This document shows positions 1,961 to 11,547 of a stretch of DNA of 11,709 nt, one piece after another. The stretch is taken from positions 1 to 11,709 of the forward strand of contig JBJTQJ010000087.1 of NCBI GenBank assembly GCA_046075565.1, in the 5' to 3' direction. Under the pieces are notes generated by a model. That model saw only the letters and a list, made by a program, of their open reading frames with translations. It was not told the DNA's origin and searched no databases. This stretch comes from Verrucomicrobiales bacterium. GTDB taxonomy: Bacteria > Verrucomicrobiota > Verrucomicrobiia > Verrucomicrobiales > SLCJ01. Within the stretch, counting starts at the first letter, position 1; the number at the start of each line of letters is the position of its first letter. The position numbers and the translations under genes were made by a program.

Positions 1961-3118
1961 ATGGAGAAAGAAATGCATATCCAAGCTCCTGTCCTTGAGT
2001 TGGAGGATGGCAACGCCCGCTTGTCCGCCCGGATCCTGTGCGCGGACGCGCCACGCGAATTGTGGTTCTCCATTCCCGAGGAGCACGCCGATTGGTTCGC
2101 GGCGGATCGCTGTGATGGCTTTGTGGTAGCGTTGCTCCTCCAGGCGATGGGGAGGGGGGAAGATATTGTCACGGAATCACCGATGTCCTCCAGGCTGTGG
2201 CACAGCCTTACCCATTCCTTTATTCCCATGATGGCGCGGGCCTTTCCAAAACTGCGCCCCGTGCGGATCCGGCCGGCTTCTCTAACAACGGTCGGGACAT
2301 CTGGCACCGGAGTGGCGACAGGATTCTCGGCCGGCATTGATTCGTTCGCAGCCGTCATCAAGCATCTCGTCCGGGAGGAAGCCGCGGATCACCGGGTCAC
2401 CGATTTCCTTTTTCACAATGTTGGGTCACATGGCCCCGGGGAGCCGGAAGCCTGCCGACGCATTTTCAGGAAGCGATTTGAGGTGGGAAGACCCTTCACC
2501 GAGGAGGCTGGAATCCCCTTTGTTCCCGTGGACTCCAATCTCGGGGACATCTTTCCCATTGATTTCGTGAAAACCCACACGGCCCTGAACGCGGGCGTGC
2601 TGCTTGTGTTGCAGAACCGGTTCCGCCGCTATTTCTATGCGTCCACTTACAAGTATGCGGACTGCAAGGTGGCGCATGTGAGCGATATCTCATACATGGA
2701 CCCCATGGCAGTCCACCTGCTGTCCACCGAGGGGCTTGAATGTGTCTCCACGGGTTGCGAGATGTCTAGGGTGGAGAAGACCAAGCTCGTTGGTTCCTAC
2801 GAGCCCTCGCAACGCTATCTGAACGTTTGTGTCGATCCGGACGGCGACGGCAGGAATTGCTCGGTCTGCTTCAAGTGCAGGCGCACCATGCTCACGCTCG
2901 AACTGCTGGGTTTGGACCACCTCTATAACAAGGTATTCGATTTCGGAAAATTCGCCCGGGTCCGCCGTCGTTACATGAAGGAGATCATCCTTCACTACCC
3001 GAACTCCTTCGAGGCGGAAATCGCGGAGGCGTTTTTTGTTCCGCGCTCGCGCGCATGGAAATGGTTGATCCGCACGGGTGGCTGGATTCGCAAACACCGA
3101 CAATACAAGGCGAAATGA
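1961..3118 (+). CDS. Uncharacterised PP-loop (adenine nucleotide alpha-hydrolase-like) protein with a QueC-type C-terminal Cys4 motif
   Basis: 385 aa; an alternative start is the ATG at 1973, preceded by GGAG. It has a PP-loop-like 'GFSAGIDS' (S123-S128, nt 2327-2344), 'SRVEKT', and 'LNVC-x9-C-x2-C-x2-C' (C290/C300/C303/C306, nt 2828-2878). Its stop overlaps the next start (ATGA). Confidence 0.75.
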   Translation: MEKEMHIQAPVLELEDGNARLSARILCADAPRELWFSIPEEHADWFAADRCDGFVVALLLQAMGRGEDIVTESPMSSRLWHSLTHSFIPMMARAFPKLRPVRIRPASLTTVGTSGTGVATGFSAGIDSFAAVIKHLVREEAADHRVTDFLFHNVGSHGPGEPEACRRIFRKRFEVGRPFTEEAGIPFVPVDSNLGDIFPIDFVKTHTALNAGVLLVLQNRFRRYFYASTYKYADCKVAHVSDISYMDPMAVHLLSTEGLECVSTGCEMSRVEKTKLVGSYEPSQRYLNVCVDPDGDGRNCSVCFKCRRTMLTLELLGLDHLYNKVFDFGKFARVRRRYMKEIILHYPNSFEAEIAEAFFVPRSRAWKWLIRTGGWIRKHRQYKAK

Positions 3119-3993
3119 CATCACTTTCATCATCATTCAAAAAACTGGCCAAAGGGAAGCTGGTTGATCCGCTGCGGCGGATAACCTTCGAGACCGTTTA
3201 CCGGGGGTATCTGCCCCTCTACTATTGCGACACACCCAACTGGGGGGATGCCCTCAGTCCGATTCTTTGCGCCAAGCTGTCCGGCAAGCCGGTCAAGAAG
3301 ATGCTATGGCAGCATCAGAAGCGCTTCCTCGCCATCGGCAGCATTTTGGAAAATGCCAATGCCCGCGCAGAGGTTTGGGGAAGCGGCTTCATCTGGCCGG
3401 ACGGAAAACTCGACGAGGCCCCGGGGGCTGTGCACGCCGTGCGCGGGCCCCAGACGAGGGCGAAACTCCGGGCCATGGGCATCGATTGCCCCGAGGTGTA
3501 TGGAGATCCGGCCCTTCTCTTCCCCTACTTCTATGATCCAGTGGTCGAGAAAAAATACGAGGTCGGCGTGATTCCGCATTTCAGTGACAAGGATACCGAA
3601 TGGGTCAGGAATTTGCCCCGGGACCCGTCCGTCCGCATCATCAACGTCGAGGGCGGCATTGAGGAATTCGTCCGCGAGGTGAAATCCTGCGAGTTGATCC
3701 TCTCCAGTTCGCTGCACGGCATCATCTGCGCCGATGCCTATGGTATTCCAAACATGTGGGTGAAATTGTCCGACATCCTCTATGGAGGAAACTTTAAATT
3801 CCGGGATTACTATGAATCCGTGGGCAGGGACTCCCCCGAACCGGTGACACCGGATGTCCATACCCCGCTGGCGGAATTGACCCGGCGCTTCCGCCCCTAC
3901 ACGCCGAAGATCGAATTGCGCCCCTTGGTCAATGCCTGTCCCTTCATCAGCGCAAAGGTGCGTGATGACCTGCTGCGGCGAATGAAGGCGTGA
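3115..3993 (+). CDS. Polysaccharide pyruvyl transferase family protein (ExoV-like)
   Basis: The start is placed at the ATG at 3115 (ATGA overlap with the upstream stop), giving 292 aa. Motifs: 'NWGDAL', 'AIGSIL', 'VWGSG', 'AVRGP', 'GDPALL', 'GVIPH', 'SSSLHGII.ADAYGIP', 'FKFRDYY'. Confidence 0.92.
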   Translation: MTSLSSSFKKLAKGKLVDPLRRITFETVYRGYLPLYYCDTPNWGDALSPILCAKLSGKPVKKMLWQHQKRFLAIGSILENANARAEVWGSGFIWPDGKLDEAPGAVHAVRGPQTRAKLRAMGIDCPEVYGDPALLFPYFYDPVVEKKYEVGVIPHFSDKDTEWVRNLPRDPSVRIINVEGGIEEFVREVKSCELILSSSLHGIICADAYGIPNMWVKLSDILYGGNFKFRDYYESVGRDSPEPVTPDVHTPLAELTRRFRPYTPKIELRPLVNACPFISAKVRDDLLRRMKA

Positions 3994-4042
3994 CGATGTG
4001 CAGTCGACGCCTGGCCCAAAGACAATCCATGAATCGCGAGTC

Positions 4043-4903
4043 ATGATCCGCGCCATTTTCAAGCGATACAAGTTTCACCCGCGGCGCTGGCTCCTGGGAC
4101 TGATTTCCTATTTGCGCTTCATTGGTTACATCCGGCCGTCCCTCGGGGCAGGCAAGGAGGTGGACTACCGCATCTGGCGGAAACTTTTCCTGAACGCGTG
4201 GGAACCCCGCGAGCTTTCTTTTCCCGTCGGAAAGAGGATTCTCGCCATCTCCCCGCATTCCGATGACGAGGCCATCGGTGCGGGCGGCCTGCTCTGGGCC
4301 CACCGCGATGTGGCCGATATTCATGTCGTCCTCGTCACGGATGGGGCCGCCTATGGAGCCGTCCAGCGGGAGGGGTAAACTCTGGAAGAGGCCCGCGCCG
4401 CCCTGGTTGAGGAAAGGAAGAACGAGCTCAGGAAGACCGCGGATGCGTTGCGTGCGAAATCGCTCTCCTTCCTCGATCTTCCGGACCGTGCAGTCGTGAT
4501 TGACGACGACTCCGTTGCGAAACTCCGCAAGGTGTTGGACGAGGTCGATCCCGATGTGGTTCTCCTGCCATGGTTCCTGGACAACCACCCGGATCATCGT
4601 TCGGTCAACCGTCTCTTTTCGCGGGCATGCACGAACCGGAATCCGCTCGTGCTCGGATACGAAATCTGGGCCGTGCTTGATCCAAACGCTTATTTTGACA
4701 TCACCGACCAGTTGGACGCGAAAATCTCTCTCATCGAGAACTACGCAACCCAGATAGGAGAGGTTGACTACATGACCTTCGCGCGTGGCTTGGCATGGGT
4801 GCGTGGCTATCAGTTGATCCGGAAAAACGGCCGCAAAGCGGCAGAGGCTTATGTGGCGCTTCCGGCCGAAGACTACCGGGAGCTGGTGGACGAAGTGCTG
4901 TAG
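4043..4903 (+). pseudogene. PIG-L/LmbE family de-N-acetylase interrupted by an in-frame TAA (4376-4378)
   Basis: ORFs 3998-4378 and 4448-4903 are in the same frame. Reading through TAA gives ...VQREG*TLEEARAALVEERKNELRKTADALRAKSL... The 5' part has 'ISPHSDDEAIGAGG' (PHxDD) and 'VTDG'. The 3' part has 'DNHPDH', 'YEIW', 'DIT...K...Y.TQ' and 'AEAY'. The likely start is ATG 4043 (GTG 3998 is possible). The gene may be intact if the stop is a sequencing error. Confidence 0.85.
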
Positions 4904-4915
4904 GCTTGAAATTCG

Positions 4916-5946
4916 ATGCAAATCTCTGTCATCGACGGGAGGAGTTTGACGGCTGACCATGTCGAAGCTTGGTCAGCCATCCAGAGCTCGGTGCCGGAGT
5001 TGGAAAGCCCGTTCTTCCGTCCCGAGTTCACGCAGGCGATTGCCGAGGTCACGGGAGGGAACGTCTTTGTCGGCGTCATTCATGAACCATCAGGCAGGCC
5101 AGGCGGGTATTTTCCGTTCCAGTTGGAGCGTCCGGGATTTGGGAAGAACCTGGAGATGTGTGATTATCAGGGGCTCATTGCGCCCCCGGTCTTGAAATGG
5201 GATGTGAGGGCATTGATTCGAAAGTGCGGACTCAAGGTTTGGGAGTTTGACCATCTATGCACCGCGAACCCGGCTTTTGAGCCATTCCATCTTTATACCA
5301 CCGAGTCCCCAATCATCGACGTTTCGCGCGGGTTCGAAGCCTACAAAGCCTCTCTAAGTCCCGAAGGGCGGCGACACCTTGCCAAGGCGGCGACTTCCGC
5401 GAGGAAGGTTGAGCGCGAAATCGGTCCGATAGCCCTGGTCTCCGACAGCGACGATCCACAGTTGATGACAGCCATGCACCGATGGAGGGCGCAAAAGTAT
5501 GGCCCGCTTCCGGATTGGGCCCGCTCGGCACTGGAAATCATCAGAAACACCCGCACACCTTCCTTCGCCGGGATGCTTTCGGCCTTGTATGCGGGGGATC
5601 GGTTGATGGCCGTGCACTTCGGAATTCGCTCGCGCGGGGTGTTGCATTGGTGGTTTCCATCGTATGCCCCCGGTCTATCCAGCTACGCTCCCGGAATACA
5701 GTTGAATTGAATATGGCGGAGCACTGCGCGGAACATGGTGTTGCCAGGATTGATTTGGGAAAAGGCCTGCAAGATTACAAACGGCGGTTTTCCAATGCCT
5801 CATCCCGGGTTGCCACGGGCTCCGTCGACTTGCCCGTCTTCGCAAACGTCCCCAGAATCCTTCGCCGCAGGTGTTGTAGCCTCGTTCGCCAGTCTCCGAT
5901 CCTGCTGAATCTGGCCAGAGGCATGAAACGCTTGGCTCTCCAATAG
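4916..5946 (+). pseudogene. CelD/BcsL-type GNAT acyltransferase (Acetyltransf_6-like) with a frameshift near 5705
   Basis: ORF 4916-5710 has 'SPFFRPEF', 'GYFPF', 'CDYQGLI', 'SALYAGDRLMAVHFG', 'LHWWFPSY...YAPG'. The expected C-terminus 'LNMAEHCAEHGVARIDLGKGLQDYKRRF' continues in the frame of ORF 5482-5946. Adding 1 nt at CAG TTG AA TTG AAT ATG (5699-5715) restores about 343 aa. Confidence 0.85.
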
Positions 5947-5991
5947 AGCCGGCTCACTTCTGACCGCGAAACATACATAGCGGCCCGCATC

Positions 5992-7800
5992 ATGTATCAA
6001 CTGATCTGGAAAAACCGCCGGCTCTGGAAAGAACATGCCCTGCCGGGCGAGATTGGCGAGGATGTCAGGGAGAGGGAAGTCACCCTCTCCTCAATGCTGA
6101 AATGGGAAGAGCATTGTGTCGAATGCTCCGCGCCAGCGTGTTACACGTCCTGCGGATTGTATGCCGACCGCGGGGATGGCAATTGCCGCAGGTTCAGCTA
6201 CGGTATTTTCCCGCACCCCGGATTCTCCGGACTGTTCGGCTACGGCGCGGATGTCCATTTCAAGCGTTGGGGAAAACTGGAAGCCTTGTGGCCAAAACAA
6301 CCACGGCTCCACTCCATCGCCGTGGCACGCTGGATTGACCGATGCGCGCAAGCTTACGATGCCATTCGGTTGTTCGCGCTCAAGTTGACGCCGAAAGGCA
6401 CGATCTGGAGCCGGAGGGTTCAGCACTGGAGCCTTGAGTGGAAAAAGCGCGCGCTGGAAACGGCGAGCGGTTTGTTTGGAAAAGAATTACCCGCGGATGC
6501 CTTCTATATCCGCTTCTTTTCCCCCGCTCCCTCATCCTTCAACCTGCAATTGGAGTTTATCCAGGACGTTCCGGTATGCCGGCGCAGCATCAGCGTAAAG
6601 CAGGGGTGGAACGAGTTTCTGCTCCCGGCCGCCGAGATCCAGGCTGACCCCGCGAAAAACGAATACGTCCGCCTGTGGGTGGATGCCGACCGCGAGGCCA
6701 GGTTCATTTTCACCTGGTTGGATTTCGTGGTCTTTGCCGGGGAAAAGACGGTGCGGCAGGAGAGCCCGGCTCAGAAAGTGAAATGCGTGGCATGGGATCT
6801 GGACAACACGCTCTGGAAGGGCGTGATCGGTGACGATGGCAAGGACGGCGTGAAGGTGGTTCCCGAGGCAGTCGAGATGATCCATCGCTTGGACCAGCGC
6901 GGTATCTTGCAGACCATCGCCAGCAAGAACGAGCACCAGATCGCGTGGGAAAAAATCACCGAACTGGGCTTGGCTGATTTCTTCCTCTACCCGGCAATCA
7001 ACTGGAACCCGAAGAGCGCGAATCTCCGGCGGATCGCCGGAGAGCTGAACATCAACGTCAACACCTTCGCGCTCATCGATGACTCGGGGTTCGAGCGGGG
7101 CGAGGTGTCCGCGGCCCTGCCCCAGGTGAGGGTTTACGATCCCCAATTCCTTTCCTCCCTGCTAGATCGGCCGGAATTCGATGTCCCTGTGACAATGGAC
7201 ACAAGCTCGCGACGCCTCAAATACATGGAGGAGATCAGCAGGAAATCCGTCCTTCAGAAGTGGGAGGGGGACCTTGACGAATTTCTCCAGGACTGCCGCA
7301 TCGAGCTAAACATCCGAAGCCTCCAAAATCAGGATCAGAAAGACCGCTGTCTTGAATTGCTGCATCGCAGCAATCAATTCCACCTTTCTGGAAAACGCTA
7401 CACCCCGGATGAATTCGAGGCCCTCCTCAGGGACCCTCAATATGACAGCTATGTTCTGGATGTTCGGGATCGCTATGGTGATTACGGGATCGTGGGATTC
7501 GTGTCCATTCGAAACGAGGTTGACGTGGTTACGGTGACCGATTTTGTCATGTCATGCCGGGTGGCGAGAAAGAAGATCGAAAACGCGTTCTTCCATTGGT
7601 ATCTCAACCGGGAGGAGTCCCGCGGCAAAAATGCCCATGCCGTCATGAAGGTGACCGGGAGAAACCAACCCCTCCGGCAGGTGTTCGAGGAATTGAAGTT
7701 CGAGGTCGTTAGGGAGACGGATTCGGAGATCCTGATGCGGGTTGATGTTGCGAGGATCGCGGCCGGGAAACCTCCCATCACGATAAAAACCAGCGAATAG
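5992..7800 (+). CDS. fkbH: FkbH-like glyceryl transferase/phosphatase (HAD-IIIC + C-terminal GNAT-like domain) with an about 260-aa Cys-rich N-terminal extension
   Basis: 602 aa. HAD motif I 'KCVAWDLDNTLWKG' (D269, nt 6796), 'IASKN', 'INWNPKS', 'IDDSGFER', 'RSNQF', 'DRYGDYGIVG', 'FVMSCRV' (C522, nt 7555). The N-terminus carries 'WEEHCVECSAPACYTSC...GNCRRF'. Confidence 0.92.
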   Translation: MYQLIWKNRRLWKEHALPGEIGEDVREREVTLSSMLKWEEHCVECSAPACYTSCGLYADRGDGNCRRFSYGIFPHPGFSGLFGYGADVHFKRWGKLEALWPKQPRLHSIAVARWIDRCAQAYDAIRLFALKLTPKGTIWSRRVQHWSLEWKKRALETASGLFGKELPADAFYIRFFSPAPSSFNLQLEFIQDVPVCRRSISVKQGWNEFLLPAAEIQADPAKNEYVRLWVDADREARFIFTWLDFVVFAGEKTVRQESPAQKVKCVAWDLDNTLWKGVIGDDGKDGVKVVPEAVEMIHRLDQRGILQTIASKNEHQIAWEKITELGLADFFLYPAINWNPKSANLRRIAGELNINVNTFALIDDSGFERGEVSAALPQVRVYDPQFLSSLLDRPEFDVPVTMDTSSRRLKYMEEISRKSVLQKWEGDLDEFLQDCRIELNIRSLQNQDQKDRCLELLHRSNQFHLSGKRYTPDEFEALLRDPQYDSYVLDVRDRYGDYGIVGFVSIRNEVDVVTVTDFVMSCRVARKKIENAFFHWYLNREESRGKNAHAVMKVTGRNQPLRQVFEELKFEVVRETDSEILMRVDVARIAAGKPPITIKTSE

Positions 7801-7899
7801 AGAACCGGAAACGTCATGGTTGGATTAGTATGGGAATCTACCGCAAATCCCCGGATACAACACCTCCAAGCCACAACGCCACAATTCAACAACAAGCTT

Positions 7900-8779
7900 A
7901 TGATAAACAAAATTAGAAACTACTCGAAGTTCCTCTACGGATTGAGCCCGGCGGCTTTGGTGACCATGATTCAGGACGGGCCGGACGCGGCGCGGGCTGT
8001 GGTTCGGCAAACCAGAAAGGCTGCGGAAAACGCAGACCACGTTCACGTGATGTCCTACTGGGATTTTGCCCGGGCCTTTTCCACCCCGAACCAGCTCATG
8101 TTCGATGGAGGTGCCTGGCAGGATGGATGCACCGCCCCGTTGGAGAGATTCTGCCTCGCGCAGCTCATCCGGTTCTTTTCTCCGCGTCAATTGTTGGAAA
8201 TCGGCACATTCAAGGGTTTTACCACCTGCCTCATGTTGGACAACGCGCCGGACAATGCGACCGTCCACACGGTCGATCTTGCCCCCGGAAAGAGAACACA
8301 TGAACCTGACCGCGGCGACCGATGCCCGCCTCATTCATCAGACGGGCATGGGTTCCGCATACCTGCGGCACCCGAAGCATGCCCAGGTTCGCCAGGTTCT
8401 CGGGGATTCCTTCCGTGCCGAGACCTGGGAAAACATACCAAAAACAATTGAGTTTGCCTTTATCGATGCAAGCCATTCCTACGAGGCGGTGAAGAATGAC
8501 ACGGAGCGCGTGTTCAAGACCGCGACGGATGATGTCGTCATCGCGTGGCATGATTATACGGACGAGGATTCCTATGAGCGGGGCATCGGAAAATACATCC
8601 GGGAATTGATGAGCGAGCGGCCGGATATCTTCGTGATTGAGGGGACAACCCTCGCGGTGAGGATTCCCCTCCATGTTCTAAAAAAACAAGCGGCGACAGT
8701 TCCTTCGTTTTATCCCGCCGGTGATTATCTCACCCGTCATCCGCTTGGAGCAACTCCTTGGCTCAGATCGAATCACTGA
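7900..8779 (+). pseudogene. Class I SAM-dependent methyltransferase (Methyltransf_24-like) with a frameshift at about 8279-8286
   Basis: The 5' frame (ORF 7816-8451, likely start ATG 7900) has 'LLEIGTFKGFTT' and 'HTVDL'. The 3' frame (ORF 8066-8779) has 'QVLGDS', 'FAFIDASHSYEAVKNDT' and 'VIAWHDY'. Removing 1 nt from GATCTTGCCCCCGGAA joins them (VDLPPER or VDLAPER), giving about 292 aa. Confidence 0.85.
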
Positions 8780-8827
8780 AGGCTTCCGCATAAAACCGGT
8801 GGATTGGTTCAGATTGGATGTCATGTC

Positions 8828-8884
8828 CAAAAAACACTCGCGCGTTGCCGGCGCGATACAGTTGCCTCAGTTTTTTGATACCAT
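8828..8884 (+). promoter_or_regulatory. Possible regulatory element in the intergenic gap before the GT4 gene (nested inverted repeats plus a candidate extended -10)
   Basis: CAAAAAAC (8828-8835) and GTTTTTTG (8870-8877) form a perfect 8-bp inverted repeat enclosing TCGCGC (8838-8843)/GCGCGA (8851-8856). TGATACCAT at 8876-8884 fits TGnTAnnAT. The repeats are seen directly; the function is a guess. Confidence 0.25.
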
Positions 8885-8902
8885 CTTTACCAAAAACTAA
8901 AA

Positions 8903-10207
8903 GTGGCCCCACTGCATATTCTCCACATCAACACCATGGATCAAGGTGGTGGAGCCGCGCAATTGGCCTTCAATCTGGTCGAGGCGAGCAATGCCGCCGG
9001 ACACAAGGCGACGATGGCGGTTCGCGCGAAGAAGAGCCAAAGGGATTTCGTCAGTCTTATTGAAAACGACGGGAACCGGCATGGGTGGGCCCGCTTTTGT
9101 TTGCGAACGCTTACGAAGAAAAACGGAAGCCAGCGCCTCGCCCGGCTGATTGGCCGGCCATGGGATACCGCCCGGGTTTTATGGGGGCTCGAGGATTTTG
9201 ATTTTCCCGGCATCTGGAAGCTGTTTGAGCGGCTTCCCCACAAGCCGGATCTGCTGCACCTGCATAATCTGCACGGCAACTACTTCGACCTGCGGGCCCT
9301 CCCTTGGCTGAGCCACCAGATCCCCACGGTGGCGACCTTGCATGATGCCTGGATGATGAGCGGTCATTGTTCCCACGGTTTCGACTGCGATCGCTGGCGC
9401 AGCGGTTGCGGCCAGTGCCCGGATCTCAGCATCTATCCAGCCATTCCGCGCGATGCCACCGCTTACAACTGGCGGCGCAAGCAGGCCATTTACGCCAAGA
9501 GCCGACTGCATGTGGTCGCGCCTGCAAAGTGGCTGATGAGTAAAGCCCATGAATCCATGCTGGCGCCGGCCATCGCCACATCCCGGGTGATTCACCACGG
9601 CATCGATCTCTCGGTATTCAAGACCGGAGACCGCGCCCAAGCCCGGCTTGAATTGGGACTGCCCCCGGACGCCACAATCCTGATGTTCGCCGCCGCAGGC
9701 ATCCGGGACAACATTTGGAAGGACTACCAAACCATGCGGCGCGCCTTTGAGTCCTTGGGAAGTTCCTCAGGGCGGCAGGGCCTGCTCTTCCTTGCGGTTG
9801 GGGACGATGGTCCCACGGAAAACATCGGCGGCAACGAACTCCGCTTCATTCCCCATTCCAGCGATCGCGCGCTGCTCGCGAAGTATTATCAGGCATCCGA
9901 TCTCTACGTCCACGGCGCGAAGGCCGAAGCGTGGGGCCTGACCATCACCGAAGCCATGGCCTGCGGCCTGCCGGTCGTGGCAAGCGATGTGGGCGGCATC
10001 CCGGATCAAGTGGCGGAAGGTGAAAGCGGATACCTCATTCCGGTGGGAGACGACCAACTCATGGCCCGGCGGATCGCGATGTTGTTGGACGATCCGTCAC
10101 AGCGGGCGGAGATGGGCCGCTGGGCCTGCAACCGGGCCCACGCCGAATTCGGCATTGCCACAATGACGGCAAGCTACCTGGACTTCTACGCGTCCGTCCT
10201 GGCGTGA
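8903..10207 (+). CDS. Glycosyltransferase family 4, WcaC-like
   Basis: 434 aa, GTG start. Motifs: 'ILHINTMDQGGGAA', 'PDLLHLHNLHG', 'TLHDAW..SGHC...C.RW..GCGQCP', 'VIHHGID', and the GT4 E-x7-E motif 'EAWGLTITEAMACGLPVVASDVGGIPD'. Confidence 0.93.
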   Translation: MAPLHILHINTMDQGGGAAQLAFNLVEASNAAGHKATMAVRAKKSQRDFVSLIENDGNRHGWARFCLRTLTKKNGSQRLARLIGRPWDTARVLWGLEDFDFPGIWKLFERLPHKPDLLHLHNLHGNYFDLRALPWLSHQIPTVATLHDAWMMSGHCSHGFDCDRWRSGCGQCPDLSIYPAIPRDATAYNWRRKQAIYAKSRLHVVAPAKWLMSKAHESMLAPAIATSRVIHHGIDLSVFKTGDRAQARLELGLPPDATILMFAAAGIRDNIWKDYQTMRRAFESLGSSSGRQGLLFLAVGDDGPTENIGGNELRFIPHSSDRALLAKYYQASDLYVHGAKAEAWGLTITEAMACGLPVVASDVGGIPDQVAEGESGYLIPVGDDQLMARRIAMLLDDPSQRAEMGRWACNRAHAEFGIATMTASYLDFYASVLA

Positions 10208-11547
10208 TGAATCCGTCTGCTTGTTATTCTCCCATGATTTCCATTCTCATCGTCGTATCCTGGCATGGCCATCATCCGTCCTACTGCACCCAGTTCATTC
10301 GTGCCTGCGCGTCTTTCAGCGAGAAGGTTTATGCCATCGTGCCCGAAGGCTCCGATCCACTCGACCGGCTTGAGGAATTTCCGGATGTGATTAGCGAAAC
10401 CGTCGTCATCCCATTTGCCAATCGCTATCCCAAATGCGCCTTTGGCGAGCTCCGGGCGCTGGAAAACGATTTCGACGAACTCCGGACCTTGGTTGGTTCC
10501 ATCAAGGATTCGCATCCGGGTTCGAGCGCTTTCATCTTTCATACGGATCTTGGGACCTTGGTTTGGAATTTCCGCCACTTACCCAGGCTCGCTTTCCGGG
10601 CCAGTGAATGGTTTCCCTGGCCATTCGGAGGTCTGTTGATTTCTCCGGATCGCAGATGGCCCTTGGAGGGGATACGGGAATCCTTGTGCCGGGCCATCGG
10701 CAAAGGCGGCCAACCGGGATCGCCCGCCCGTTTGCTGCTCAAGATATCCGGCGCGATGTTGGATATGGCTGGTGCGCTAATGAGGAGTTGCTATCTCAAT
10801 CTCAGGAATCTGGCGTTCAGGAAAAGCACTTGCTGTCAGATCGCCATTGAAGACGAGCGCTATTTGGAACCCCTACGCCTGGCGACTGGCACGAAAACCC
10901 ACTTCCTGCCAGAGACGACATCCGTCGAAGTGGCGGTCCCCGCTCCCGACCTCGTGGGCCGGATCGAGAGCAAGAGGAATGGCTTGGTTGTCGTTGGGAT
11001 CCTGGGAGCGATCAGCCCGAGAAAAGGAATCGATCTGCTGGCTGACGTGATCAAAAACCAGAACACGGATGGTTTCCTTTTCGTCCTTGCCGGGCCATGC
11101 GTGCCTTCGGAATTCCCGCCCGCAATTTCTGACTTCCTGCAAAATGAAATCTCAAATTACGGCAATGTGATTTACAGCCCCCATACCATTGTATCGGAAC
11201 CCGAATTCAATGCCATCATTCAAGCCTGTGACATCCTGTATTGCGCCTACAAGGGTCACATCCATTCCAGCAATGTGATCAGCAAGGCGGCGGCATTCCG
11301 CAAGCCGGTGATTGTGAGCGATGGGGAATTGATGGCCAAACGGGTCAGGGAGTATGGACTGGGCGTCGTTCTTCGCGGACGCAACTCCACGGCCTGCCTT
11401 GAGGCGCTTCGCGAACTCGCGGCCCCCGGTTTCAGGGAAGCCTTCGGCAAGTCCGCCAAATCCGGTCTTTACATGGAGGAGCACTCCTTCGAAAGCCTCC
11501 AACAGGCCATGGCATCGCTCGCCAGAGAACAAACCGGAGAAGCGTGA
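10204..11547 (+). CDS. GT-B fold glycosyltransferase (GT4-like, divergent)
   Basis: 447 aa. The start overlaps the upstream stop (GTGATG; ATG 10207 or 10234 are also possible). It has N-terminal 'HGHHPSY' and a C-terminal Rossmann domain with 'GILGAISPRKGIDLL', 'FVLAG', 'IQACDILYCAY...SSNVISKAAAFRKPVIVSD...VREYGLG'. Confidence 0.82.
   Translation: MMNPSACYSPMISILIVVSWHGHHPSYCTQFIRACASFSEKVYAIVPEGSDPLDRLEEFPDVISETVVIPFANRYPKCAFGELRALENDFDELRTLVGSIKDSHPGSSAFIFHTDLGTLVWNFRHLPRLAFRASEWFPWPFGGLLISPDRRWPLEGIRESLCRAIGKGGQPGSPARLLLKISGAMLDMAGALMRSCYLNLRNLAFRKSTCCQIAIEDERYLEPLRLATGTKTHFLPETTSVEVAVPAPDLVGRIESKRNGLVVVGILGAISPRKGIDLLADVIKNQNTDGFLFVLAGPCVPSEFPPAISDFLQNEISNYGNVIYSPHTIVSEPEFNAIIQACDILYCAYKGHIHSSNVISKAAAFRKPVIVSDGELMAKRVREYGLGVVLRGRNSTACLEALRELAAPGFREAFGKSAKSGLYMEEHSFESLQQAMASLAREQTGEA

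Follow-up and report, generated by a model that had tools for sequence, protein, structure and literature searches.

What does an FkbH enzyme do in a polysaccharide gene cluster in which no carrier protein is found to receive its product? FkbH enzymes of the methoxymalonyl-acyl carrier protein (ACP) pathways, such as OzmB, are short proteins of about 350–366 aa, and OzmB (366 aa) is reported to convert 1,3-bisphosphoglycerate (1,3-BPG) to phosphoglyceryl-S-OzmB and then to glyceryl-S-OzmB, from which the glyceryl group passes to an ACP (PMC9057759). Of the open-access papers listed in a literature search on FkbH, most, judged by their titles and abstracts, concern polyketide or peptide natural products. 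The question is raised by a DNA stretch of 11,709 nucleotides (nt) from a Verrucomicrobiales bacterium, here called the window, which is the entire contig JBJTQJ010000087.1 (C87) of a 3.9-Mb, 129-contig assembly (GCA_046075565.1), so that there is no flanking sequence. The element under study is a plus-strand gene at 5992–7800 that encodes an FkbH-like protein of 602 aa, composed of a Cys-bearing jelly-roll, a HAD-IIIC phosphatase domain, and a GNAT-like domain with C522. The protein represents an uncharacterised form of a familiar type of enzyme, to which a new Cys-bearing domain is joined. As to function, we propose an ACP-independent FkbH in which glycerate derived from 1,3-BPG would N-acylate a freshly deacetylated amino sugar during polysaccharide decoration, a reading to which we give an even chance and which is weighed below against its rivals.

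FkbH core and the search for a carrier protein

The FkbH core of the window protein (residues 263–571; 6778–7704, plus strand) scores 243.8 bits with the NCBIfam FkbH domain TIGR01686 (cut-off 146.65), which places the protein in the family. The core contains the HAD residues D269-x-D271-x-T273 (motif DLDNT, residues 269–273), S311, K341, and D363-D364, together with C265 and the S521-C522-R523 motif (C522 codon at 7555–7557). A homologue search with residues 1–262 retained 74 of 1262 candidates at E ≤ 1e-3. Almost without exception these proteins are about 600 aa long and equipped with a HAD domain, and 55 of the 74 were aligned with the window protein to give 56 rows, after exclusion of two near-identical proteins, several fragments of <470 aa, and a dozen redundant-looking sequences. 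The HAD catalytic residues D269, D271, T273, S311, K341, D363, and D364 are invariant in this alignment. They are also identical, as are C265 and S521-C522, across 46 rows that carry the Cys domain (Cys-type) and 19 rows of short, ACP-linked FkbH proteins, and R523 is shared by 45 of the former and all 19 of the latter. A conserved cysteine of the kind required for an acyl-S-enzyme is thus found in both groups, in C522 of the SCR motif and in C265; the acyl group would be carried by C522, with C265 as a possible alternative. The first half-reaction, from 1,3-BPG, is presumably the same as in OzmB, and the FkbH core would form a glyceryl-S-enzyme. The gene itself is intact, and its substitutions relative to an 88%-identical relative (locus L006) fall mainly at third codon positions.

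Automated names of homologues include “HAD-IIIC family phosphatase”, and both HAD and GNAT folds are found in the protein, as would be expected of a plain phosphatase that acts on a phosphosugar, with a GNAT domain that uses acetyl-CoA and with no involvement of glycerate. We consider this very unlikely, since the score lies far above the FkbH-specific cut-off and all the invariant residues, including both invariant cysteines, are common with the ACP-linked, glyceryl-loading enzymes. The automated name is probably misleading.

A distinct position for the Cys-domain proteins within the family is evident from a maximum-likelihood tree in which 68 FkbH cores were compared, 46 of them from proteins with the Cys domain, 19 classed as short, and 3 classed as other; the rows of L006, L046, L015, and L058 had been dropped on a failed motif pattern or too short a core. 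One clade (SH-like approximate likelihood ratio test 100, branch length 1.13) unites all ACP-linked short FkbH proteins and includes none of the Cys-domain rows. Three rows labelled short or other are placed among the Cys rows; these are truncated or mis-called open reading frames (ORFs), for which the tblastn matches begin at residues 25–48. An earlier note on this DNA, made from the sequence alone, had supposed a distinct FkbH subfamily, and the tree agrees: on core sequences, the Cys-domain proteins are a distinct branch of the family with the same catalytic core. The two groups also differ consistently at four positions near C522 (7498–7581), where F503, D517, K527, and E530 of the Cys-type proteins stand against Leu, Leu, Arg, and Gly in the short FkbH proteins. 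The acidic Asp517 and Glu530, which flank C522, could serve as candidate bases for aminolysis.

A contig scan of genomes gave 80 loci, 47 of them with the strict Cys motif, and 17 loci with a short FkbH served as controls; neighbours were scanned over at most 10 kb, or less where a contig ended sooner. The carrier family PF00550 was absent both from 339 neighbouring ORFs (four called ORFs per side) and from 118 further ORFs of at least 130 aa. In the control loci, a Pfam scan of 87 ORFs no longer than 450 aa, with 36 longer ORFs dropped, identified a stand-alone ACP in 10 of 17, accompanied by 3-hydroxyacyl-CoA (3HCDH) and acyl-CoA dehydrogenase genes, i.e., the methoxymalonyl-ACP cassette. 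These dehydrogenase genes were present in control loci only, and the Cys-type loci hold no cassette of a dedicated ACP with FkbK/FkbI dehydrogenases. Because the Pfam E limits differed between the neighbour scans (1e-3, 1e-5, and 1e-4), the ACP test was repeated uniformly, with a profile built from 11 control ACPs and run over six-frame segments of at least 45 aa. The profile recovered an ACP in all 17 control loci at E ≤ 6.5e-21, including the seven outside the profile seed, and detected two unrelated ACP-like genes elsewhere in the genome of the window (3e-6 and 1.5e-5), whereas it gave no match in the 47 Cys loci or the window (0/48; best E 0.26). When the complete assembly was searched in six frames, PF00550 matched contigs C51, C110, C117, and C73 only, and not C87. 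The observation in the earlier note that the window has no ACP is hence borne out by both searches, and the neighbourhood survey extends it to the Cys-type loci.

The ACP-like genes on four other contigs leave room for a conventional FkbH that loads a distant or highly divergent carrier, with the acyl group then moved to the sugar by a PF13480 GNAT or another enzyme. GNATs of this family are indeed linked or fused to Cys-type FkbH proteins, and the flagellar glycan locus of Campylobacter jejuni that includes cj1302 presumably contains an ACP. The contrast between the Cys-type loci and the controls in the same profile scan, which was sensitive enough to detect the two unrelated genes, speaks against such a carrier, as does the separate branch of the Cys-type proteins with its different residues near C522, and we judge this alternative improbable. 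Taken against OzmB and the other FkbH proteins of methoxymalonyl-ACP pathways, then, the window protein has in common the HAD-IIIC and GNAT-like core, with DxDxT, Ser, Lys, Asp-Asp, C265, and SCR, but it differs in an additional 260-residue N-terminal Cys jelly-roll, in its branch of the tree, and in a location within polysaccharide clusters, beside de-N-acetylases and with no FkbJ-type ACP or FkbK/FkbI-type dehydrogenases nearby.

Fold and cysteine loop of the N-terminal domain

The region upstream of the HAD motif comprises about 260 residues, and translation of 5992–7800 places Cys42, Cys45, Pro48, Cys50, Cys54, and Cys65 exactly as the earlier note had described them. The N-terminal domain (residues 1–258; 5992–6765, plus strand) belongs to no Pfam family, and neither the whole domain nor the Cys segment 34–103 gives a Pfam match even at E ≤ 10. 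A sequence search of the PDB with residues 30–110 returned chance-level matches only (E 0.8–1.7). Scores in a search of the ESM Atlas (0.81–0.84) lie below the level at which a match is counted, with “galactose-binding domain-like” (0.83) as a sub-threshold lead.

AlphaFold (AF2) models were built on the homologue alignment, with a mean predicted local distance difference test score (pLDDT) of 88.8 and a predicted template modelling score (pTM) of 0.64 for the full-length protein, and 89.4 and 0.88, respectively, for residues 1–258 alone. Strands are predicted at residues 170–177, 183–191, 205–212, 225–230, and 236–248, and coincide with segments that the earlier note had taken for β-strands. 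In the model, strands from residues 30–108 and 170–248 form one β-sandwich, into which the Cys loop (residues 42–65) and a helical hairpin (residues 109–162) are inserted; the Cys loop has a lower pLDDT (62–69) than the rest of the models. The earlier note had thus been right in that both a Cys motif and a β-sandwich are present, but they would not constitute two modules, since the Cys loop is inserted in a single jelly-roll.

Fold comparison of the N-terminal domain with VIA-align against 48,161 chains gave the N-domain of chondroitinase ABC as top match, with Z 9.7 (132 residues aligned, root-mean-square deviation (rmsd) 3.4), where a best Z of 7–8 is common for unrelated models. Next are carbohydrate-binding modules (CBMs), namely a CBM22-containing xylanase (Z 9.4), CBM11 (9.2), and CBM8, CBM4, CBM22, and CBM30 (8.5–8.9), and the CBM-type alignments span model residues 28–256. 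Foldseek of the N-domain model agrees, with CBM-type jelly-rolls at E 1e-4 to 1e-3. A fold of the CBM-like jelly-roll class, which the earlier note had suggested as a carbohydrate-binding-like domain, is therefore supported at the level of the models. The jelly-roll common to the window protein and to CBM11, CBM22, CBM4, CBM30, and the chondroitinase N-domain covers 120–140 residues (Z 8.4–9.7, rmsd 3.4–4.2). Unlike the CBMs, the N-terminal domain is located in the cytoplasm as part of a transferase polypeptide, its five-Cys loop and the 55-residue hairpin insert remain unaligned, and it has no sequence or Pfam relation to any described CBM family. Most likely, the jelly-roll holds the acceptor, be it a glycan or a lipid-linked one.

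In a Foldseek search with the full-length model, which also retrieved MDP-1 and GNAT acetyltransferases, the top match was BF1531 of Bacteroides fragilis (PDB code 3slr), which comprises the N-terminal portion of a long protein of FkbH-like type. The HAD domains of the two proteins match in a profile comparison (E 5.5e-26), but the match is limited to residues 265–382 of the window protein and 223–353 of 3slr. The 222 residues that precede the HAD domain in BF1531 have no sequence match to the Cys domain, and 3slr is absent among the fold matches listed for the N-domain model.

The N-terminal domain is not a peculiarity of the window. A phmmer search against 1.84 billion representatives (clusters at 50% identity) found it in 557 clusters at E ≤ 1e-3, 345 of them at E ≤ 1e-10, spread across many phyla. 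Among the 150 matches listed of the 557, the domain is almost always located at residues 1–250; the proteins are mostly about 600 aa long, nearly all of the full-length ones are FkbH proteins, and a shorter length probably marks a contig fragment. Three proteins (P0006, P0007, and P0008; 967–973 aa, with P0008 of 967) are Cys-domain FkbH proteins fused to a C-terminal PF13480 GNAT. Open-access literature searches for FkbH, HAD-IIIC, polysaccharide, and glycerate gave no paper on the Cys-domain subfamily, which does not prove its absence from print.

The Cys loop, C42-x2-C45-x4-C50-x3-C54-x10-C65, is encoded at 6115–6186 on the plus strand (C42 codon at 6115–6117, C65 codon at 6184–6186), is preceded by W38-x-E40-H41, and is a presumed metal site. 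Trp38, Glu40, His41, Cys42, Glu44, Cys45, Pro48, Cys50, Cys54, and Cys65 are invariant in all 56 rows of the alignment, where identity to the window protein goes down to 30%, and the exact CX2CX4CX3CX10C spacing is found in 208 of 217 homologues, with one near variant. The remaining eight consist of four N-terminally truncated proteins, P0146 and P0183, which lack only C50, P0209, which lacks only C54, and P0169, which deviates in several places. Conservation of the motif in the alignments is far beyond chance, and for a cytoplasmic enzyme, five cysteines that do not vary indicate a metal. As variants without C50 or C54 exist, the site tolerates loss of one middle cysteine, which fits a four-ligand centre of either Zn or Fe-S type. 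Judged by this pattern, the most likely role of the loop is to hold a single metal centre via four cysteines and thereby to stabilise the jelly-roll.

As for the identity of the metal, the earlier note had called the motif ferredoxin-type. No Fer4-type family matches residues 1–258 or 34–103 at E ≤ 10, no iron-sulfur protein was returned by the PDB sequence search at E ≤ 10, and the spacing is x2/x4/x3 in place of the x2/x2/x3 of the ferredoxin CxxCxxCxxxCP motif; the proline that follows the fourth cysteine in that motif is present in 49 of the 208 homologues and is Gly in the window protein. Homology to ferredoxins, for which neither a family nor a PDB match was found and which the location of the loop inside a jelly-roll does not favour, is unsupported, and so is that description. 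The x2/x4/x3 spacing does recall the Fe-S motif of the N-domains of dihydropyrimidine dehydrogenase (DPD) and GltD, and the conserved ligand-type residues exceed the needs of a Zn site, which argues for Fe-S, as does the proline in the 49 homologues that have it. From these sequence features we would give an Fe-S cluster an even chance, with zinc somewhat less probable and a loop with neither of the two unlikely.

An Fe-S cluster in this position could be more than structural, and might take part in chemistry, by dehydration of the bound glycerate to a pyruvoyl or lactoyl group, or in redox switching. Fe-S dehydratases act on 2,3-dihydroxy acids, a class to which glycerate belongs, the five invariant cysteines together with His41 exceed the needs of a structural Cys4 site, and the spacing resembles that of DPD/GltD. 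The dehydratases that use the cluster as a Lewis acid bind it through three cysteines, however, not five, and no homology to Fe-S families was detected in Pfam or in the PDB sequence search. The four-Cys variants P0146, P0183, and P0209 fit a simple four-ligand site, and the loop is situated in an acceptor-type jelly-roll, outside the catalytic core. An active cluster is for these reasons quite unlikely; if it were present, one polypeptide would remodel a glycolytic intermediate and attach it to a surface glycan with neither a carrier protein nor CoA.

De-N-acetylase neighbours and the proposed acceptor

The strongest functional clue, overlooked in the earlier note, is a de-N-acetylase gene adjacent to the Cys-domain FkbH gene, which is found in 37 of the 47 loci and belongs to family CE4 (PF01522) in 26, YdjC in 10, and PIG-L in 1. 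YdjC genes mostly follow FkbH directly, and in, e.g., L010, L013, L017, and L020 the stop codon of one gene overlaps the start codon of the other. PIG-L adjoins FkbH in L006, the relative of the window introduced above, and a PIG-L gene is present in the window as well (4043–4903). The occurrence of three unrelated deacetylase families in one slot indicates that function, and not shared ancestry, accounts for the pairing. In L029, which has none of the usual deacetylases, a gene for an N,N-dimethylformamidase-like amidase (DMFA2_C; 8257–10128, minus strand) adjoins FkbH, and possibly represents a further, fourth type of deacylase at this position.

Direct transfer of glycerate to a sugar, one of the options raised in the earlier note, fits this gene context. 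In the mechanism we propose, a cysteine (C522, possibly C265) would attack the acyl phosphate of 1,3-BPG, as for OzmB, and the HAD site would take off the 3-phosphate to leave a glyceryl-S-enzyme. The recipient of the glyceryl group would then be not the thiol of an ACP, but an amino sugar whose amine the neighbouring deacetylase has set free, with an N-glyceroyl amino sugar as product, and an adjacent O-methyltransferase may methylate the glyceroyl group. The jelly-roll would bind the glycan acceptor and so replace the ACP-docking function. The steps beyond the retention of the FkbH residues are inferred.

Deacetylation followed by re-acylation would be the same order as for NodB and NodA of Nod-factor synthesis, where an N-acetyl group is removed and the amine is re-acylated. 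A similar logic is contained in a proposal for C. jejuni 11168, which is reported to make 5-(2,3-di-O-methylglyceroyl)-pseudaminic acid, with removal of the 5-acetamido group before re-acylation (PMC3068675), and the glycosylation locus of this strain is described as holding an fkbH-domain gene, cj1302 (PMC7099621). Unlike in the NodB/NodA and C. jejuni routes, to which the acyltransferase considered here is unrelated, the donor would be an enzyme-bound thioester made from a glycolytic intermediate. Products of the predicted type are on record, as an N-(D-glyceroyl) amino sugar is reported from the O-antigen of Pragia fontium (PMC10609480), and for Tannerella forsythia the genes for glyceroyl substitution are reported as still unknown (PMC5378307).

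The same glyceryl-S-enzyme could instead transfer its acyl group to a sugar hydroxyl, to yield an O-glyceryl ester of the kind carried by gellan, in which case the deacetylases would do unrelated trimming. A GNAT-like domain with a thioester could acylate oxygen as well as nitrogen, other enzymes for O-substituents are present in the clusters (the pyruvyl transferase of the window, and an AT3-SGNH O-acyltransferase beside FkbH in L006), and 10 of the 47 loci are without a deacetylase. What an O-ester leaves unexplained is the pairing with de-N-acetylases of three families in 37 of the 47 loci, often with overlapping codons, for which there would be no reason if an amine were not needed. We therefore regard O-acylation as unlikely, and retain N-acylation as the preferred reading.

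Further neighbours point to modification of the substituent. PF13480 GNAT genes neighbour FkbH in 9 of the 47 loci and in the window, and methyltransferase genes of the TylF/Methyltransf_24 type in 8 loci and in the window. AsnB-like glutamine amidotransferase genes are located beside Cys-domain FkbH genes in L026, L027, L030, L033, L058, and L067. These AsnB-like genes co-occur with PF13480 GNAT and TylF-like methyltransferase genes, in Nitrosospira and Acidobacteriota loci, which suggests that the AsnB-bearing clusters make a more elaborate substituent.

The gene cluster of the window

By their family assignments, the genes of the window constitute a polysaccharide biosynthesis cluster on the plus strand. 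It starts with a candidate for a MATE/Wzx-like flippase (374–1933), identified from weak MatE/TIGR00797 matches under the cut-off, which is followed by a 385-aa ORF (1961–3118) for which neither Pfam nor NCBIfam gave a match at E ≤ 10. The product of this ORF is 53% identical to its counterpart in L006, compared with 77–90% for the neighbouring genes, and might be a fast-evolving, polymerase-type membrane protein. A polysaccharide pyruvyl transferase gene (3055–3993; PF04230, E 3.3e-15) has a 90%-identical orthologue in L006. Downstream of it are the PIG-L/LmbE-family de-N-acetylase gene (4043–4903), the gene for the PF13480 FemAB-like GNAT (4916–5946), FkbH, and a Methyltransf_24/O-methyltransferase-like gene (7816–8779), and the cluster ends with two genes for GT4 glycosyltransferases (8903–10207 and 10204–11547; PF00534 and PF13692).

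Three of the neighbours of FkbH are interrupted in the window. The PIG-L gene has an in-frame TAA at 4376–4378, where L006 reads CAA; both halves match PF02585, with 28.7 and 36 bits compared with 87.8 bits for the intact orthologue (L006:9078–9938). A minus-strand ORF over the same region (3947–4960) is spurious, as the substitutions relative to L006 fall on third codon positions of the plus-strand PIG-L frame. Position 4376 is T in contigs of two runs, one of them the probable source run, and C (CAA, Gln) in one contig of a third run, from a sister sample, at a depth of 4.6, a weak hint that the population may be polymorphic for this nonsense codon. A 1-nt frameshift near 5705 splits the GNAT gene, and the fused proteins P0006–P0008 align to 4850–5704 in frame 2 and to 5707–5934 in frame 1, with 47–65% identity. 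On this alignment, the GNAT gene just upstream of FkbH is the unfused form of the C-terminal part of P0006–P0008. In a tblastn search with methyltransferases and GNATs from other loci, nothing matched the window at E ≤ 1e-3 apart from these fused proteins. The methyltransferase gene consists of two overlapping frames, split between about 8300 and 8365, with Methyltransf_24 profile positions 1–35 in ORF 7816–8451 and 42–105 in ORF 8066–8779. Contigs from other runs cover 5459–6013 and 8234–8413 without gaps, so the GNAT and methyltransferase frameshifts are not restricted to the assembly studied here.

Relative to L006, the window has the GNAT gene as an insertion (4903–5981 vs. L006 9938–9990), and the methyltransferase segment (7787–8917) replaces the AT3-SGNH O-acyltransferase (L006 11796–13786). 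From the presence or absence of the GNAT gene and the methyltransferase swap, it follows that the modification genes vary as cassettes around a conserved FkbH.

Several of these observations weigh against N-acylation with glycerate as proposed above. What serves as acceptor, acyl group, and metal is in each case an inference. The match to CBM-like folds is moderate (best Z 9.7 vs. the 7–8 typical of unrelated models), and a shared fold does not amount to a shared function. No deacetylase is seen in 10 of the 47 loci, although several of these are short contigs. The PF13480 GNATs, linked to FkbH in 9 of the 47 loci and in the window and fused to it in P0006–P0008, suggest chemistry beyond a single transfer. 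A housekeeping ACP, for which the four PF00550 matches elsewhere in the genome are candidates, may act as carrier. Finally, the stop in the PIG-L gene and the frameshifts in the GNAT and methyltransferase genes may mean that the pathway is inactive in this strain.

With these reservations, the window protein is a candidate for the glyceroyl-substitution step on bacterial O-antigens and nonulosonic acids, with N-glyceroyl and O-methyl-glyceroyl groups as the substituents concerned. The N-terminal domain in itself defines an unannotated family of 557 clusters in many phyla, with an invariant five-Cys site that presumably binds a metal. If the proposed mechanism is true, these enzymes would provide a direct route from glycolysis, at the level of 1,3-BPG, to the decoration of glycans.

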